Of a DNA stretch of 53,607 nt, positions 10,453-16,433 are shown piece by piece. The stretch is from Burkholderiales bacterium. Lineage in GTDB: Bacteria; Pseudomonadota; Gammaproteobacteria; Burkholderiales; SG8-39. The stretch is from the NCBI GenBank assembly GCA_050741015.1, contig JBOIFE010000024.1, positions 1-53,607 on the forward strand, given 5' to 3'. Within the stretch, counting starts at the first letter, position 1. The number at the start of each line of letters is the position of its first letter. The notes below the pieces were generated by a model. The model was not told where the DNA came from, did no database searches, and worked only from the letters and a program-made list of their open reading frames with translations. The position numbers were made by a program, and so were the translations under genes.

Positions 10453-11151
10453 CTAGCCCCGCGTCCCGCGCTTGCCGCCGCGGTTCAATCGTTCAAAGGC
10501 GAAGACGACGTAGCGCTGGCGACCGCCGGCGCAAAGCGCGTCGAATGGATAGCAGGTCACCAGCGTGAGCCGGGTCGGACCCTCTTGCTTGGTCACCCAG
10601 ACATCGCCCTGGTCGAGCACGTCGGCCTCGAACACGCGAAAGGCGATGCGCACACCGTCGGCGCGCTCGATCATGATCGGATCGCCGGGACGAAGCCGTC
10701 GCAGGAACGCGAGCTGCGTGTCGCGGTGGCCGCCGATCACGCTGTTGCCCGGGCTCCCCGGAAGCGGCGTTCCGTCGGGATGGCCCGGCCCGACGGCGAG
10801 CGCACTGCCGGCGTCGCCGGCAAGCACGTACTGCTCGATGCCGAGCGTGGGGGCCAAGAGCTTCGCCACGGGCCACGTATCGGCCCACGGCCAAGGCCTC
10901 ACCTCGCGCTCGCCCGCGAGTGTGCGCTCCCAGGCGCGGGCGATCAGGTCCTGCGCCAGCCAGCGCATGCCCGTGCCGGGCTCGTCTGCGCGAGCGGGCA
11001 GCGCAAGCAGCAGCGTCGCCGCGGCGAGCCCGACGGCGCACACGACCGCGATGGCGACGGCGCGAGCGATGAAGCCGAGAAGATCGGCGGCGACGTGACG
11101 GGCGGTGACGGCCGGAAGCGGCTCGGGCATGGGGTTCTCCTGAGCCTGCAT
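10453..11151 (-). CDS. class GN (proteobacterial dedicated) sortase
   Basis: N-terminal TM anchor, WPWADTWP, the catalytic His context GGHRDTQLAFL and the Cys motif LTLVTCYPF. An alternative start lies at 11130. Confidence 0.85.
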   Translation of the reverse strand: MQAQENPMPEPLPAVTARHVAADLLGFIARAVAIAVVCAVGLAAATLLLALPARADEPGTGMRWLAQDLIARAWERTLAGEREVRPWPWADTWPVAKLLAPTLGIEQYVLAGDAGSALAVGPGHPDGTPLPGSPGNSVIGGHRDTQLAFLRRLRPGDPIMIERADGVRIAFRVFEADVLDQGDVWVTKQEGPTRLTLVTCYPFDALCAGGRQRYVVFAFERLNRGGKRGTRG

Positions 11152-11263
11152 TCAAACGCCCCGGTCGGGCCGAGCGCGGCCGCGCTTCGGGAAAGGCGGC
11201 GAACAATTCTGGCATTCCGGGGGCAGCGCGTCCGGCGCGGGAGCGATCCGCTATATTGGCCGC

Positions 11264-11953
11264 GTGCCACGCCGCATCGCGCTCGTCGAGGACGAACCCG
11301 CCATCCGCGCCAACTACGCGGACGCACTGCGCAAGCACGGCTTCGAAGTTAGCGCCTACGGCACGCGGCCGGAAGCGCTCGCGGCGATGCGCGTGCGCCT
11401 GCCCGATCTGGCCGTCATCGACATCGGCCTGGCCGGCGATGCCGATGCGGGATTCGACTTGTGCCGCGAGCTGCGCGCGCTTTCGTCGTCGCTGCCGATC
11501 ATCTTCCTTACGGCGCGCGACAGCGACTTCGACGTCGTGTCGGGGCTGCGCCTGGGCGCCGACGACTACCTCACCAAGGACATCAGCCTGCCGCACCTGC
11601 TGGCCCGCATTGCCGCGCTGTTTCGTCGCGCCGAGCTCGCGCGCGAGCCTGGGGCGACCGAGGAGACGATTCAGCGCGGCGACCTCACGCTCGACCTCAA
11701 GCGTTTCAGCGTCGCCTGGCGCGGCAGCCCCGTGGCGCTGACGCTGACCGAGTTCTGGATGGTGCACGCGCTCGCCCGGCATGCGGGTCACGTCAAGAAT
11801 CGCGAGCAGTTAATGCGCGAGGCGAAGCTGGTGGTCGACGATGGCACCGTGACCTCGCACGTCAAGCGCATCCGGCGCAAATTCCAGGTCGCCGATCCCG
11901 GCTTCGAGCACATCGAGACCGCGTACGGCATGGGCTACCGTTGGAAGGAGTGA
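11264..11953 (+). CDS. OmpR-family response regulator (candidate sortase-system regulator)
   Basis: Receiver domain (IALVEDEP, phospho-Asp context LAVIDIGL) plus a winged-helix C-terminus (YGMGYRW). GTG start. Divergent from the sortase. Confidence 0.9.
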   Translation: MPRRIALVEDEPAIRANYADALRKHGFEVSAYGTRPEALAAMRVRLPDLAVIDIGLAGDADAGFDLCRELRALSSSLPIIFLTARDSDFDVVSGLRLGADDYLTKDISLPHLLARIAALFRRAELAREPGATEETIQRGDLTLDLKRFSVAWRGSPVALTLTEFWMVHALARHAGHVKNREQLMREAKLVVDDGTVTSHVKRIRRKFQVADPGFEHIETAYGMGYRWKE

Positions 11954-13602
11954 AGCGGCGCTTCTCGCCCAGCCTGCGCACGAAGCTCGCGCTCGTCTCG
12001 CTCGTGCTCCTCGCACTGCCTTGGGCGGGCCTGAAGTTCGTCGATGAGATGGAGCGCGTGCTGCTCGAGGGCCAGGAGCGGGCGCTGCTCGCGACCGCGC
12101 GCGCAGTCGCGACCGCGCTTCACGACCGGCCGCAGCTGCTGGTCGCCGTACCGGCCCGCGACAGCGCCATGCGACAGGAGGCCGAGCTCGAGCTGCAGCG
12201 CCTCGCGCAGAGCGACGGCCAGCTCGCGCCCGGTTCCACGCCGCAGATTCCGCTCGCGCGCGAGGACGAGCTGCGCGCGCGCCAGGCGCAGGCGGAAATC
12301 GCCGCCATTCTGCGCGGCGTGCAGCACACGCAGTCGCGCCTGTGGGTAGTGAATCGCCGCTACCAGGTGCTCGCGCTCGAGGGCAGCCTGCGCCGGCCGC
12401 AGGCCGAGCCCGAGCCCGGGTTCTGGCCGGCGCTTTGGCGCCGCGCCGTCGGCTGGTTGATCGAGCGCCCGAGCGAGGACTTCGCCGAGGCCGTACCCGA
12501 CGATGTGCTGGCGACGGGCCGCGACATCACGTCTGCGCTGCAGGGGACGCCCGGTACTCGAATGCGGCGCACGCCTGATGGGCGCGCGATTGTCATGTCC
12601 GCAGCCTCACCGGTGTGGGACGGCGACGAAGTGGTGGGCGCGGTCGTCGTCGAGGAGACGACCAACCCGATCGCCGCGCTGCGCAGCGACGCGCTCGAGC
12701 GGCTGCTCGTGATCACGCTTGCCGTGTTCGCGGGCACTGCGGCGGTCCTGATCGGCTTCGCCACCCGCTTGTCGCATCGCATCCGCCAGCTGCGCGACGA
12801 AGCCGAGAGCGCCATCGATCCGGGCGGGCGGCTGACGCGGCTCAGTGCGGGCTCCGGGGCGGGCGACGAGATTGGCGACCTTTCGCGCAGCTTCTCGGCG
12901 ATGCTTGCTCGACTCGCCCAGCACCACGCCTACCTCGAAAGCATGGCCGGGCGCCTGTCGCATGAGCTGAGGACCCCGATCGCGGTGGTGCGCTCCTCGC
13001 TGGAGAACCTCAAGCTCGCGCCCAGCGCCGAGGAGGCGCGGACCTACGTCGCGCGAGCCGAGCAGGGCCTGGCGCGGCTGAACACCATCCTGCAACGCAT
13101 GAGCGAGGCGAGCCGGCTCGAGCAAAGTTTGCTCGTGGCCGAGCGCGAGCGCTACGATCTTGCGGCGCTCGTGCGTGGCTGTGTCGAAGGCTACCGGACA
13201 GCCTACGCAGGGACATCGATCGCGCTCGAGCTGCCTGGGCGCGCGCTCGAGGTCACGGGTGCGCCGGACCTCGCCGCCCAGATGCTCGACAAGCTGGTGG
13301 AGAACGCAGTGGACTTCTCCCAGCCCGGCGCGACGATCACGATCCGCCTCGAAGCGCTCGGCCGCCACGTCCAGATCTCGATCGAGAATCTCGGCCCACT
13401 GCTTCCGGCGCAGATGCGAGGGCGCCTGTTCGACTCGATGGTCTCGGTGCGCGACTCGGGCGCCGCGGCGGGTCCGCACCTCGGGCTCGGGCTCTACGTT
13501 GCGCGCCTCATCGCCGAGTTCCACGGCGGCGCGATCGAGGCCGCCGATCTCGCGGCGCGCGACGGCGTGGTGGTGCGGGTCAACCTGCCGCTCGCGCGCT
13601 AA
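11950..13602 (+). CDS. sensor histidine kinase (candidate sortase-system kinase)
   Basis: GTG 11950 overlaps the regulator stop (GTGA). Two TM segments flank a periplasmic region. H-box SHELRTPIAV, N-box VENAVDFS, G-box GLGLGLY. The ORF-track start at 11461 lies inside the regulator gene. Confidence 0.9.
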   Translation: MKRRFSPSLRTKLALVSLVLLALPWAGLKFVDEMERVLLEGQERALLATARAVATALHDRPQLLVAVPARDSAMRQEAELELQRLAQSDGQLAPGSTPQIPLAREDELRARQAQAEIAAILRGVQHTQSRLWVVNRRYQVLALEGSLRRPQAEPEPGFWPALWRRAVGWLIERPSEDFAEAVPDDVLATGRDITSALQGTPGTRMRRTPDGRAIVMSAASPVWDGDEVVGAVVVEETTNPIAALRSDALERLLVITLAVFAGTAAVLIGFATRLSHRIRQLRDEAESAIDPGGRLTRLSAGSGAGDEIGDLSRSFSAMLARLAQHHAYLESMAGRLSHELRTPIAVVRSSLENLKLAPSAEEARTYVARAEQGLARLNTILQRMSEASRLEQSLLVAERERYDLAALVRGCVEGYRTAYAGTSIALELPGRALEVTGAPDLAAQMLDKLVENAVDFSQPGATITIRLEALGRHVQISIENLGPLLPAQMRGRLFDSMVSVRDSGAAAGPHLGLGLYVARLIAEFHGGAIEAADLAARDGVVVRVNLPLAR

Positions 13603-13629: not shown

Positions 13630-14412
13630 ATGAAACCGCTCACCGAGCTGCGCGGCGCGAGCCGCCTGCGCGGCCTGCTCTTCGACCTCGACGACACGCT
13701 GACGACGCACGGCCGTCTTACCGGGCAGGCCTACGCGGCCCTCGAGCGCCTGCACGCGGCCGGCCGCCTCGCGGTCGCGGTCACCGGCCGGCCCGCGGGC
13801 TGGTGCGACCACATCGCGCGCATGTGGCCGGTCGACGCCGTCGTGGGGGAGAACGGCGCGTTCTACTTCCGGTTTCGGGACGGGCGGCTCGACAAGCGCT
13901 ATCACGAGGGCGAAGGCGTGCGCCGCGCCAAGCGAGCGCGGCTGGAGGCGATCATCGCGCGTATCGTCGCCGCGGTGCCCGGCACCGCGGTCTCGGCGGA
14001 CCAGGCCTATCGCGAGACGGACCTCGCGATCGATTATTGCGAGGACGTTCCGCCGCTGCCACTCGAGGCCGCCGAGCGCGTCGCCGTGCTGATGCGCGAG
14101 GCCGGTTTGACCGCCAAGATCAGCTCGATCCACGTCAACGGCTGGTTCGGCGACTACGACAAGCTCGCCATGACGCGCACGCTGTTCTCGGAGGCGTTCG
14201 GGCTCGACCTGGAGGCGGTGCGCGACGAGATCGCATTCGCGGGCGATTCGCCCAATGACGCGCCCATGTTCGGGTTCTTCCCGAACTCGGTCGGCATGGC
14301 GAACATCGCGCGCTTCGCGGGACGGATCTCGCCCGAGCCGGCCTACGTCGCGCGCGCGGAGGCGGGCACCGGGTTCGCCGAGCTCGTGGGCCACATGCTC
14401 GGGGAGTGCTGA
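13630..14412 (+). CDS. HAD-superfamily (IIB-like) phosphatase
   Basis: Motif I LFDLDDTLT and motif IV GDSPNDAPMF. Confidence 0.8.
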   Translation: MKPLTELRGASRLRGLLFDLDDTLTTHGRLTGQAYAALERLHAAGRLAVAVTGRPAGWCDHIARMWPVDAVVGENGAFYFRFRDGRLDKRYHEGEGVRRAKRARLEAIIARIVAAVPGTAVSADQAYRETDLAIDYCEDVPPLPLEAAERVAVLMREAGLTAKISSIHVNGWFGDYDKLAMTRTLFSEAFGLDLEAVRDEIAFAGDSPNDAPMFGFFPNSVGMANIARFAGRISPEPAYVARAEAGTGFAELVGHMLGEC

Positions 14413-15206
14413 TGGCTTACTGGTGGGCGTACCCCGCGATCGGCGCGGTGGTCGGATTTCTCGCGGGACTGCTCGGCATCGGCGGCGGCATGGTCATGGT
14501 GCCGATGCTCGTATACGTATTCACCGTAAGCAGGTTCCCTGCCGAGCACCTGATGCACTTCTCGCTCGCCACGGCGTTGGCGACCATCGTCTTCACGTCG
14601 CTCTCGAGCGTGCGCGCGCACCATCGCCACGGCGGCGTGGACTGGCATGCGGCGCGCTCGATGGCGCCGGGCATCGTCGTCGGCTCGCTCGGCGCGGCGC
14701 TGGTCGTGGGCTTCATTCCGACGCGGCCGCTCGCGCTGTGCTTTACCGTGTTCATGTTCTATGCGGCGCTGCACATGTACCGGGGCTCGCAGCCGACACA
14801 AACGCGCAGCCTGCCGGGACCGGCGGGGCTTTTTGCCGTGGGCGCCGGCATCGGCGCAGTCTCGAGCGTGCTCGCCGCGGGCGGGGCCTTTCTCTCGATT
14901 CCCTTCCTCGTGCGCCACAATGTCCCGATCCGGCGGGCGATCGGAACGGCCGCGGCCAATGGCTTTCCCATCGCCGTGGCCGGAACGATCGGCTACGTGC
15001 TCAACGGCCTTCGAGTCAACGGGCTGCCCTCGGGCAGCCTGGGGTTCGTCTACCTGCCAGGGCTCACCCTCGTCGTGGCGGCGAGCGTGCCACTCGCGCC
15101 GCTGGGCGCGCGCCTCGCGCACCGGCTGCCGGTGCGCCAACTGCGCATCGTGTTTTCTCTCACACTGCTCGCGCTCGCCCTGCGCATGCTGGCAAACTTC
15201 TGGTGA
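14412..15206 (+). CDS. TauE/SafE family sulfite/anion exporter (DUF81)
   Basis: Polytopic membrane protein with LLGIGGG repeat motifs. ATG 14412 forms a TGATG overlap with the HAD stop; an alternative GTG lies at 14406. Confidence 0.8.
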   Translation: MAYWWAYPAIGAVVGFLAGLLGIGGGMVMVPMLVYVFTVSRFPAEHLMHFSLATALATIVFTSLSSVRAHHRHGGVDWHAARSMAPGIVVGSLGAALVVGFIPTRPLALCFTVFMFYAALHMYRGSQPTQTRSLPGPAGLFAVGAGIGAVSSVLAAGGAFLSIPFLVRHNVPIRRAIGTAAANGFPIAVAGTIGYVLNGLRVNGLPSGSLGFVYLPGLTLVVAASVPLAPLGARLAHRLPVRQLRIVFSLTLLALALRMLANFW

Positions 15207-15221
15207 GGAGGAAGCGCTGAC

Positions 15222-16433
15222 ATGGCTGGACCGCTCGCGGGCATCCGCGTACTCGATCTTTCCCGTGTGCTCGCCGCACCCTGGGCCGGGCAGAACCTTG
15301 CCGATCTCGGGGCCGAGGTCATCAAGGTCGAGCGCCCCGGGGTGGGCGACGACTCGCGCGCATTCGGCCCGCCCTGGATCAAGGATGTGCAGGGCCGCGA
15401 CACGAAAGACTCGGCCTACTTCACTTCGGCCAATCGCGGCAAGAAGTCGATCACGGTCGATCTGTCGAAGCCGGCCGGCCAGTCGATCGTGCGGCGCCTG
15501 GCCGAAAAGAGCGACGTGTTGCTCGAGAACTACAAGTTCGGCGACCTCGATCGCTACGGGCTGGGATTCGCGCAGCTGAAGGAGGCCAACCCGCGCCTCG
15601 TCTACTGCTCGGTCACGGGTTTTGGCCACACCGGCCCCGATCGGGAGCGGCCGGGCTACGACTTCATGATCCAGGGCATGGGCGGCATGATGAGCGTCAC
15701 CGGGGACCCGGACGCCGGGCCGCAGCGCGCCGGCGTGCCTGTGGCCGACATCATTACCGGCATGTACGCGTCGATCGCGGTCTGCGCCGCCCTCGTGCAT
15801 CGCGCGCAGTCGGGGAAGGGGCAGCACTTGGACCTCGCGCTGCTGGACTCCCAGATCGCGCTGCTGGCCTACCAGAATACCAACTACTTCGCGACCGGCA
15901 AGCCGCCGCGCCGGATCGGAAACCTGCACCCCAATATCGTTCCTTACCAGCCCTTCCGGGCGTCGGACGGTGACGTGATCCTCGCCTGCGGCAACGACAG
16001 CCTGTTCCGGAAGTTCTGCGATGCGGCCGGGTGCAGAGAGCTCACCGCCGATCCGCGCTTCGCGACCAACGGCAAGCGGGTCGAGAACCGCGACGAATTG
16101 ACGCGCATGCTCGACGCGATCTTCGCGAAGCGCACGAAGAAGGAATGGGTGGCGCTGCTCGAGGGCGCGGGCGTGCCCAACGGCCCGATCAACGACATCG
16201 CCCAGGTCTTCGAGGAGCCCCAGGTCAAGGCGCGCGGCGTGAAGATCGAGGTGCCGCATCCGGTCGCCGGGACCCTGCCCATGGTCGCGAGCCCGATGCG
16301 TTTCTCCGCGACCCCGCTCGAGCACACCGTCCCACCGCCGACGCTGGGCGAACACACCGAGGAGGTCCTGCGGGGACTGCTCGGCGCGAGCGCCGAGGAA
16401 ATCGCGCGGCTGCGCGAGGTGGGCGCGATCTAG
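15222..16433 (+). CDS. CaiB/BaiF family (class III) CoA-transferase
   Basis: N-terminus GIRVLDLSRVLAAPWAGQNLADLGAEVIKVE and the central GYDFMIQGMGG region. Confidence 0.9.
   Translation: MAGPLAGIRVLDLSRVLAAPWAGQNLADLGAEVIKVERPGVGDDSRAFGPPWIKDVQGRDTKDSAYFTSANRGKKSITVDLSKPAGQSIVRRLAEKSDVLLENYKFGDLDRYGLGFAQLKEANPRLVYCSVTGFGHTGPDRERPGYDFMIQGMGGMMSVTGDPDAGPQRAGVPVADIITGMYASIAVCAALVHRAQSGKGQHLDLALLDSQIALLAYQNTNYFATGKPPRRIGNLHPNIVPYQPFRASDGDVILACGNDSLFRKFCDAAGCRELTADPRFATNGKRVENRDELTRMLDAIFAKRTKKEWVALLEGAGVPNGPINDIAQVFEEPQVKARGVKIEVPHPVAGTLPMVASPMRFSATPLEHTVPPPTLGEHTEEVLRGLLGASAEEIARLREVGAI

Follow-up and report, generated by a model that had tools for sequence, protein, structure and literature searches.

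Probable in-place loss of the cargo gene and a chimeric class GN sortase in a dedicated sortase locus of uncultured soil Burkholderiales

The proteobacterial dedicated sortase system, which consists of pdsS, pdsR, pdsO, a target gene and a sortase gene, was defined by comparative genomics (Haft 2011, PMC3237569). In Shewanella algae, the operon is under the control of PdsS/PdsR, a point mutation in pdsS raised the transcripts of pdsO, the target and the sortase 126- to 799-fold, and the system has been linked to beta-lactam tolerance (PMC11580497). In this paper, we analyse a locus of this system on a 53.6-kb metagenome contig of a Burkholderiales bacterium (JBOIFE010000024.1, positions 1 to 53,607; hereafter the window), which is the only portion read of the genome of this organism, a member of a group of uncultured soil Burkholderiales. 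A class GN sortase gene in the window is divergently paired with the genes of a response regulator and a sensor histidine kinase, and faces a convergent Omp85-superfamily gene on its other side (Table 1). To our knowledge, the function of sortases in diderm bacteria is almost unstudied, and the sole model is that of one enzyme attaching one adjacent VIT-vWA protein. The initial annotation of the window, which was made from the sequence alone, had assigned the three genes to the dedicated sortase system, had remarked on the absence of a target gene beside the sortase, and had proposed that the substrate was either encoded elsewhere or of a different kind.

Table 1. Coordinates of the features of the dedicated sortase locus in the window
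Feature	Coordinates	Strand	Basis or remark
Convergent Omp85-superfamily gene, 546 aa	8772..10412	+	Neighbour, not a demonstrated component; weak BamA, CdiB and ShlB similarity only
Sortase catalytic part of the putative chimeric gene	10453..10962	-	Corresponds to residues ~48-219 of intact relatives; TIGR03784 match, relatives, 2LN7
Catalytic residues His135, Cys193, Arg206 (225-aa numbering)	10728-10726, 10554-10552, 10515-10513	-	Alignment to 2LN7, sequence
Predicted deletion/fusion junction	10963..10969	-	...GGC ACG GGC / ATG CGC / TGG CTG...; local alignments to L004 end here from both sides
Putative former 5' end of the VIT-vWA target, now the sortase N-terminus	10970..11130	-	Start codon, signal peptide (...ALPARA/DE), ~6 mature residues
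Divergent regulatory region between regulator and putative chimeric sortase	11131..11263	.	Ribosome binding site AGGAG (11141-11137, - strand) and invariant blocks
PdsR-type OmpR-family response regulator	11264..11953	+	TIGR03787, 377.4 bits (cutoff 335.7)
PdsS-like sensor histidine kinase, 550 aa, short sensor domain	11950..13602	+	TIGR03785, 535.9 bits; best stretch at model positions 259-703

Profile models were taken from NCBIfam/TIGRFAM and applied with their curated cutoffs (TIGR03784, 158.25 bits; TIGR03787, 335.7 bits; TIGR03785, 612.2 bits; TIGR03788, 551.65 bits). The sortase open reading frame (ORF; 10453-11151, reverse strand) scores 169.8 bits with TIGR03784 ('class GN sortase'), which is above the cutoff, and matches the Pfam Sortase family with E=1.2e-25. 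The motifs WPWADTWP, GGHRDT and LTLVTCYPF, named earlier as class GN hallmarks, are all found in the protein together with RQRYVV, and its catalytic His, Cys and Arg align with those of the solved sortase PDB 2LN7 and of 125 relatives, so that the identity given to the enzyme stands. Gram-positive class D/E sortases (e.g. PDB 2LN7) share the fold family and the His-Cys-Arg triad of the enzyme, and they provide the next-best NCBIfam models, but the window protein scores far under their cutoffs and its organism is a diderm. The regulator likewise exceeds the cutoff of its model, TIGR03787. For the kinase, TIGR03785 is by far the best model; its score of 535.9 bits lies under the cutoff of 612.2, the protein being ~150 aa shorter than the model in the sensor region. 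Kinases of intact systems also stay under 612.2 bits, including that of the related locus L004 (538 bits) and the full-length kinase of the Halioglobus locus L079 (586 bits), and throughout the Burkholderiales clade the PdsS-like kinase has 550 aa (e.g. L004:5494-7146) and lacks ~150 sensor residues even where the target is intact. The kinase begins with a GTG at 11950 that overlaps the regulator stop as GTGA, as had been annotated. The sortase and the regulator, and probably also the kinase, thus belong to the dedicated sortase system, as initially proposed, and their divergent arrangement is also that of the known system; the possession of its own two-component system, which had been presented as a peculiarity of this sortase, is a standard part of such loci (TIGR03785/TIGR03787).

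The sortase almost certainly starts at ATG 11130 and not at 11151. The former start is preceded by AGGAG (11141-11137) and is also the one given by gene callers, the ATG corresponding to the upstream start is out of frame in L004, and an exact look-up of the 232-aa ORF returned no match, the recorded gene being one of 225 aa, as expected from a start at 11130; the length of 232 aa reported at first is to be corrected to this value. The TIGR03784 match spans protein residues 64-218 against model positions 20-174, leaving unmatched the model positions 1-19, which in this clade hold a WGAECAWP motif and a transmembrane (TM) anchor, and an intact sortase from a relative, P0002, reaches 207.7 bits, i.e. 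38 bits above the window sortase. Both the late beginning of the match and the lower score would follow from a replacement of the sortase's own N-terminus. Class GN sortases of this group carry a strongly conserved K-P-D-x-A-W-G-A-E-C-A-W-P ahead of the TM anchor (e.g. L004:10001-10150) and share a C-terminal tail, NRGGERGTRG; the window protein is without the N-terminal motif.

The origin of the new N-terminus becomes apparent from the closest relative. P0002 is encoded at the loci L004 (ENA ERZ27256499), L005 and L006 (JGI 3300032782 and 3300032770), its catalytic domain is 88% identical to that of the window sortase, and the gene order is the same: the TauE, HAD, kinase and regulator genes share a strand, the sortase gene lies on the opposite one, and an Omp85-like gene converges on it. 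The three loci thus share synteny, 86-88% protein identity and the same intergenic motifs with the window. They differ from it in that a gene for a 679-aa VIT+vWA protein lies between the regulator and the sortase, its stop overlapping the start of a sortase that has its own WGAECAWP/TM N-terminus. The protein of L004 scores 741 bits with TIGR03788 ('marine proteobacterial sortase target'), well over the cutoff, and its C-terminus reads ELPRGATDSRF (ELPQGATDSRF or ELPQTGTDSRF in relatives), followed by a hydrophobic segment and RRRVA.

The first ~54 residues of the window protein, MPEPLPAVTARHVAADLLGFIARAVAIAVVCAVGLAAATLLLALPARADEPGTG, align with the N-terminus of this L004 target, MTEPAPVVTARHVALDLIGVAARAVAVALVSALGLGAAVLLLAQPARASETGTG, and match no sortase N-terminus, 25 of 25 aligned relatives carrying MKPD-WGAECAWP-…-SLALALLLIGALQFGHGAWIQAKAW instead. 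The segment MPEPLPAVTARHVAADLLGF…ALPARADEPGTG also aligns with the target N-termini of two further loci, L009 and L012, and with the remnant ORFs of L003, L007, L008 and L010 that are described below. At the DNA level, the match between the window and L004 runs from the regulator through target codon 54 and then resumes at the WLAQ of the sortase; between the two matches the window holds only ATGCGC, and ~2.02 kb of L004 (8127-10150) are missing. The fusion is in frame, although the target and the sortase of L004 occupy different frames. All this indicates that the target was deleted in place, that its signal peptide became fused in frame to the catalytic domain of the sortase, and that the conserved N-terminus and membrane anchor proper to the sortase were lost in the window. 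The enzyme had been called membrane-anchored; the segment so read appears to be the signal peptide of the former target. We therefore regard it as very probable that the window contains a dedicated class GN sortase locus whose single cognate cargo gene was deleted in situ, leaving a chimeric sortase.

As the window is a metagenome contig, a mis-assembly might have created both the deletion and the fusion, and the two other contigs, each with an identical copy of the fused gene, L001 (from the NCBI metagenome-assembled genome (MAG) GCA_050741155.1) and L002 (from a Logan assembly), both stop ~200 nt upstream of the sortase start. Nevertheless, the junction is identical in all three contigs, which come from different assembly pipelines, it gives a clean in-frame ORF, and analogous in-frame deletions occur at six other loci from unrelated samples, long-read MAGs included, which makes an artefact highly improbable. 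The ends of L001 and L002 fall in the 5' portion of the gene for the regulator (window ~11330-11360) and may reflect strain variation.

In situ deletion has also to be weighed against the initial proposal that the cognate LPXTG/VIT-vWA substrate is intact and encoded elsewhere in the genome. The family text of TIGR03784 presumably describes the target as 'usually' adjacent, which leaves room for exceptions; moreover, the sortase is still somewhat constrained (see below), and the genome data are confined to the window. When all six frames of the window were scanned for C-terminal signals of LPXTG-like, LPxGA-like or looser form, every hit was a chance one, lying out of frame or away from the protein end. 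In agreement with the initial annotation, no frame of the window holds an ORF whose C-terminus combines an LPXTG-like motif with a subsequent hydrophobic segment and a basic tail. Of an adjacent LPXTG-type VIT-vWA target (TIGR03788), the locus contains just the 54-codon 5' remnant, which sits at the ancestral position. Elsewhere, the target lies directly upstream of the sortase in 64 of the 68 GTDB species-representative loci with enough upstream DNA, in all of the 75 metagenome loci that were retrieved with the target as query and counted only if there was room downstream of it, and in both of two further long contigs, so that more than 140 target-bearing loci include no unlinked target. When the L004 target was compared with 5.8 billion proteins, a collection that includes the proteins of this organism's MAG, one match of 98% from the same species was followed by none above 75%; these 5.8e9 proteins thus include no ortholog of the target in the range of 76-97% identity. 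Since the neighbouring proteins of the window are 86-88% identical to their L004 counterparts, a relocated ortholog is unlikely, and we hold the encoding of an intact cognate substrate elsewhere to be improbable. The other proposal, a substrate of a different kind, receives indirect support from the purifying selection on sortases without a target.

Deletion of the target is not confined to the window. Seven related loci are also without a VIT-vWA target, i.e. L003 (ENA ERZ25039558, contig_75742, a frameshift-rich assembly), L007, L008, L010, L167, L171 and L063. Each of the first six contains an ORF of 64-73 codons that joins the signal peptide of the target, plus a handful of mature residues, to its extreme C-terminus and ends at a stop overlapping the start of an unaltered sortase. 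These loci resemble the window in the in-frame deletion of the VIT-vWA body and in the retention of the two-component system, the promoter blocks and the Omp85-like neighbour, but in them the remnant is a separate ORF; a fusion of the remnant to the sortase is found only in the window among the target-less loci. In a neighbour-joining bootstrap tree of regulator plus kinase, the window and L003 group together with 100% bootstrap, and the target-bearing L004 is their sister; a separate and fully supported target-less clade, B', is made up of (L007, L167) and (L008, L010, L171), and the target-bearing L009, L172, L169 and L012 lie outside both groups. The window and L003 have an ATG immediately after the same GTG/DTD codon, and in L003 this ATG starts the retained C-terminal part 'MLV…MLCRKVA', while two junction types occur in clade B', each common to several species. 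Judging from these junctions, the target appears to have been lost at least twice independently, in three to four deletion events that were all in frame. The chance of this is ~(1/3)^3 to (1/3)^4, which suggests that continued translation into the sortase start was selected for. That the remnant ORFs encode a conserved peptide is disfavoured, as little conservation is seen in the residues that follow the signal peptide, and translational coupling is preferred as their explanation. For the window fusion, the most economical history is probably one of two steps, in which an in-frame deletion of 1836 nt within the target would have occurred in the common ancestor of the window and L003, followed in the window lineage only by a deletion of ~170 nt that would have joined the remnant ORF to the sortase.

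The locus L063 (DATFUO010000029.1, a Burkholderiales MAG) has a 151-aa ORF in the place of the target (L063:3411-3866). This 'mini-target' begins with a signal peptide and a low-complexity linker and retains the sorting signal (LPKTG, a TM segment and RRRKS), but lacks the cargo domains. The sortase of L063 keeps the triad and is very divergent, deviating at 17 of the 75 sortase columns that are at least 93% conserved.

The sortases that remained after the loss differ in how strongly they are constrained. In clade B', where all divergence is later than the loss, the full-length sortase of the five species evolves with a dN/dS of 0.11-0.18 over a dS of 0.40-0.83 (target-bearing relatives, 0.15-0.21), and none of the five has lost a catalytic motif. 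On the other hand, constraint on the sortase of the window lineage looks weaker. When codon changes unique to each branch were counted, the ratios of nonsynonymous to synonymous changes for sortase, regulator and kinase were 11:15, 4:24 and 11:65, respectively, on the window branch, 7:18, 4:21 and 18:40 on the L003 branch, and 2:23, 12:19 and 28:71 on the branch of L004, which has the target. The sortase ratio of the window branch differs from that of L004 (Fisher p=0.009) and from that of its own regulator plus kinase (15:89; p=0.004). The two-component system of the window is clearly still under strong selection. The window sortase further deviates at 4 of the 75 conserved columns (R100Q, A106D, F113V, H139Q), where the median is 1 and L004 has 0, and the sister sortase of L003 also deviates at 4, the change of the catalytic Cys to Arg among them. 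Together with the disappearance of the family's N-terminal motif and anchor, and with the fact that at 69% G+C long open frames survive by chance, these figures fit an enzyme that became functionless when its cargo was lost and that now is a pseudogene-in-waiting beside a two-component system, the latter alone being in use. Such a pure relic is a serious possibility, though not the reading we prefer, since the omega of the window sortase branch, ~0.27, is below neutrality (p=0.0014), and the window does not differ significantly from the terminal branches of clade B (p=0.096). The fusion is moreover in frame and provides an export signal, the signal-peptide part has an omega of 0.26 between the window and L003 (0.26-0.42 in target-less loci), the three to four deletion events of the group all preserved the coupling to the sortase, and the other target-less clade is unrelaxed over a dS of 0.4-0.8.

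The L003 sortase (L003:10001-10657) reads LTLVTRYPF in place of the motif with the catalytic Cys, and also has GPRYLDG. Several fragmented atp genes are found at the L003 locus, where assembly error and real decay look alike.

Under in situ deletion, the ancestral locus would have had the order pdsS-pdsR, divergent promoter, VIT-vWA target with a sorting signal of the LPQ(T/G)(G/A)T type, and sortase, the target stop overlapping the sortase start as in the closest relative. In the window, PdsS/PdsR presumably still drive the conserved divergent promoter, and the chimeric protein would be exported through the borrowed signal peptide. Cleavage probably takes place after ALPARA, because the AxA site is conserved across all homologues, and would yield a periplasmic enzyme without membrane anchor, with its complete His-Cys-Arg active site but presumably no cognate cargo. 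We lean slightly towards such an enzyme still having a selected role, be it on an unlinked substrate of another kind or in a cargo-independent function in the envelope; that it is a relic heading for loss is somewhat less than an even prospect.

Several points weigh against this reading of the locus. The scan for sorting signals covers the window and not the whole genome, so that a divergent or unrelated substrate may exist elsewhere; the branch counts of codon changes are small; the Cys-to-Arg change of L003 may be an error of its frameshift-rich assembly; the cleavage of the signal peptide is predicted from the conserved AxA site alone; the three contigs with the fusion allele may share one sequencing run; and a single deletion plus a 2-nt insertion also fits the window junction.

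By itself, an in-place deletion of the target with a chimeric sortase would amount to no more than common gene decay, and the locus is a degenerate form of a system already known. What remains of interest is the recurrent in-frame loss of the target combined with the full constraint on the enzyme of the sister clade. The recurrence, the invariable preservation of the frame, the sister-clade sortase kept under constraint together with PdsS/PdsR, and the divergent Omp85/TpsB-like gene beside each target-less locus with a remnant ORF hint that class GN sortases may serve a function under selection that is independent of the adjacent VIT-vWA protein, the only cargo known for them; we hold this to be less likely than not. 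If this is true, the window would be a second and independent case, in which the membrane anchor was exchanged for a predicted cleavable signal peptide, and this exchange would favour either a role in the periplasm or a different kind of substrate. The target-less loci are natural cargo knock-outs, in which the cargo seems dispensable in some lineages while the enzyme and the two-component system are retained; they hint at a second role or a second substrate, a computational lead from organisms that are all uncultured. For genome annotation, they are also a warning that a gene accepted by the class GN model may be chimeric, and that the absence of a target may stem from deletion and not from relocation.

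Compared with the dedicated sortase system as described, the window differs in the absence of the target gene, of which the first ~54 codons are left, in a sortase N-terminus that appears to be the target signal peptide, in a kinase short by ~150 aa in the sensor region, and in the absence of pdsO, which holds for the whole Burkholderiales clade. The pdsO model TIGR03789 was applied to seven window proteins, and tblastn with the OmpA C-terminal domain found none in the window or in the Burkholderiales loci. Since pdsO and the longer sensor are also absent from Burkholderiales members with an intact target, both would be lineage traits unrelated to the deletion. An OmpA-like partner had been expected by the initial annotation as usually present. 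A pdsO gene does exist in a part of the family (PMC11580497), but it is not universal: an OmpA-like gene lies directly upstream of the target in seven distant loci (L048, L056, L057, L069, L071, L076 and L080), which are gammaproteobacterial, Nitrospira-type and a few others. The ORFs downstream of the sortase in Halioglobus and Pseudothauera, considered as OmpA-like partners, turned out to be a wax-ester synthase and a U32 peptidase. The rhombosortase/GlyGly-CTERM and exosortase/PEP-CTERM systems are similar to the dedicated sortase system in having one sorting enzyme per adjacent homologous VIT-vWA cargo (PMC3237569), but their enzymes and signals are unrelated, and none of them is found in the window.

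The divergent region between regulator and sortase contains the invariant blocks (A/C)TATAGC, GGA(T/A)TGCCAGAATT(C/G)TTC and CAATGC, which are kept in target-bearing and target-less loci alike and are candidate PdsR boxes or promoter elements. No match to the sigma-70 consensus was found in this intergenic region.

The convergent Omp85-like gene is separated by 40 nt from the sortase stop at 10453, as stated in the initial annotation, and its Pfam, PDB and NCBIfam matches (BamA, CdiB, ShlB) are all marginal. It is present at all seven target-less loci with a remnant (the window, L003, L007, L008, L010, L167 and L171) and at the target-bearing L004, and is absent from the target-bearing L009, L011, L012, L169 and L172 and from ~130 other loci. 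A simple replacement of the target by this gene is ruled out, for L004 carries both. A promoter and terminator scan and the folding of the 40-nt spacer between the sortase and the Omp85-like gene gave nothing exceeding shuffled controls.

On the other side of the locus, genes for a HAD-IIB hydrolase, a TauE/SafE permease and a CoA-transferase (window 13630-16433) come after the kinase gene in the same orientation, narrowly spaced or overlapping. This order is shared by the two target-less clades and persists as far as L012. The CoA-transferase was confirmed in the loci with gene calls (L004, L005 and L171), and at L013 and L014 the HAD and TauE genes lie farther from the kinase. The three genes may be co-transcribed with pdsRS.

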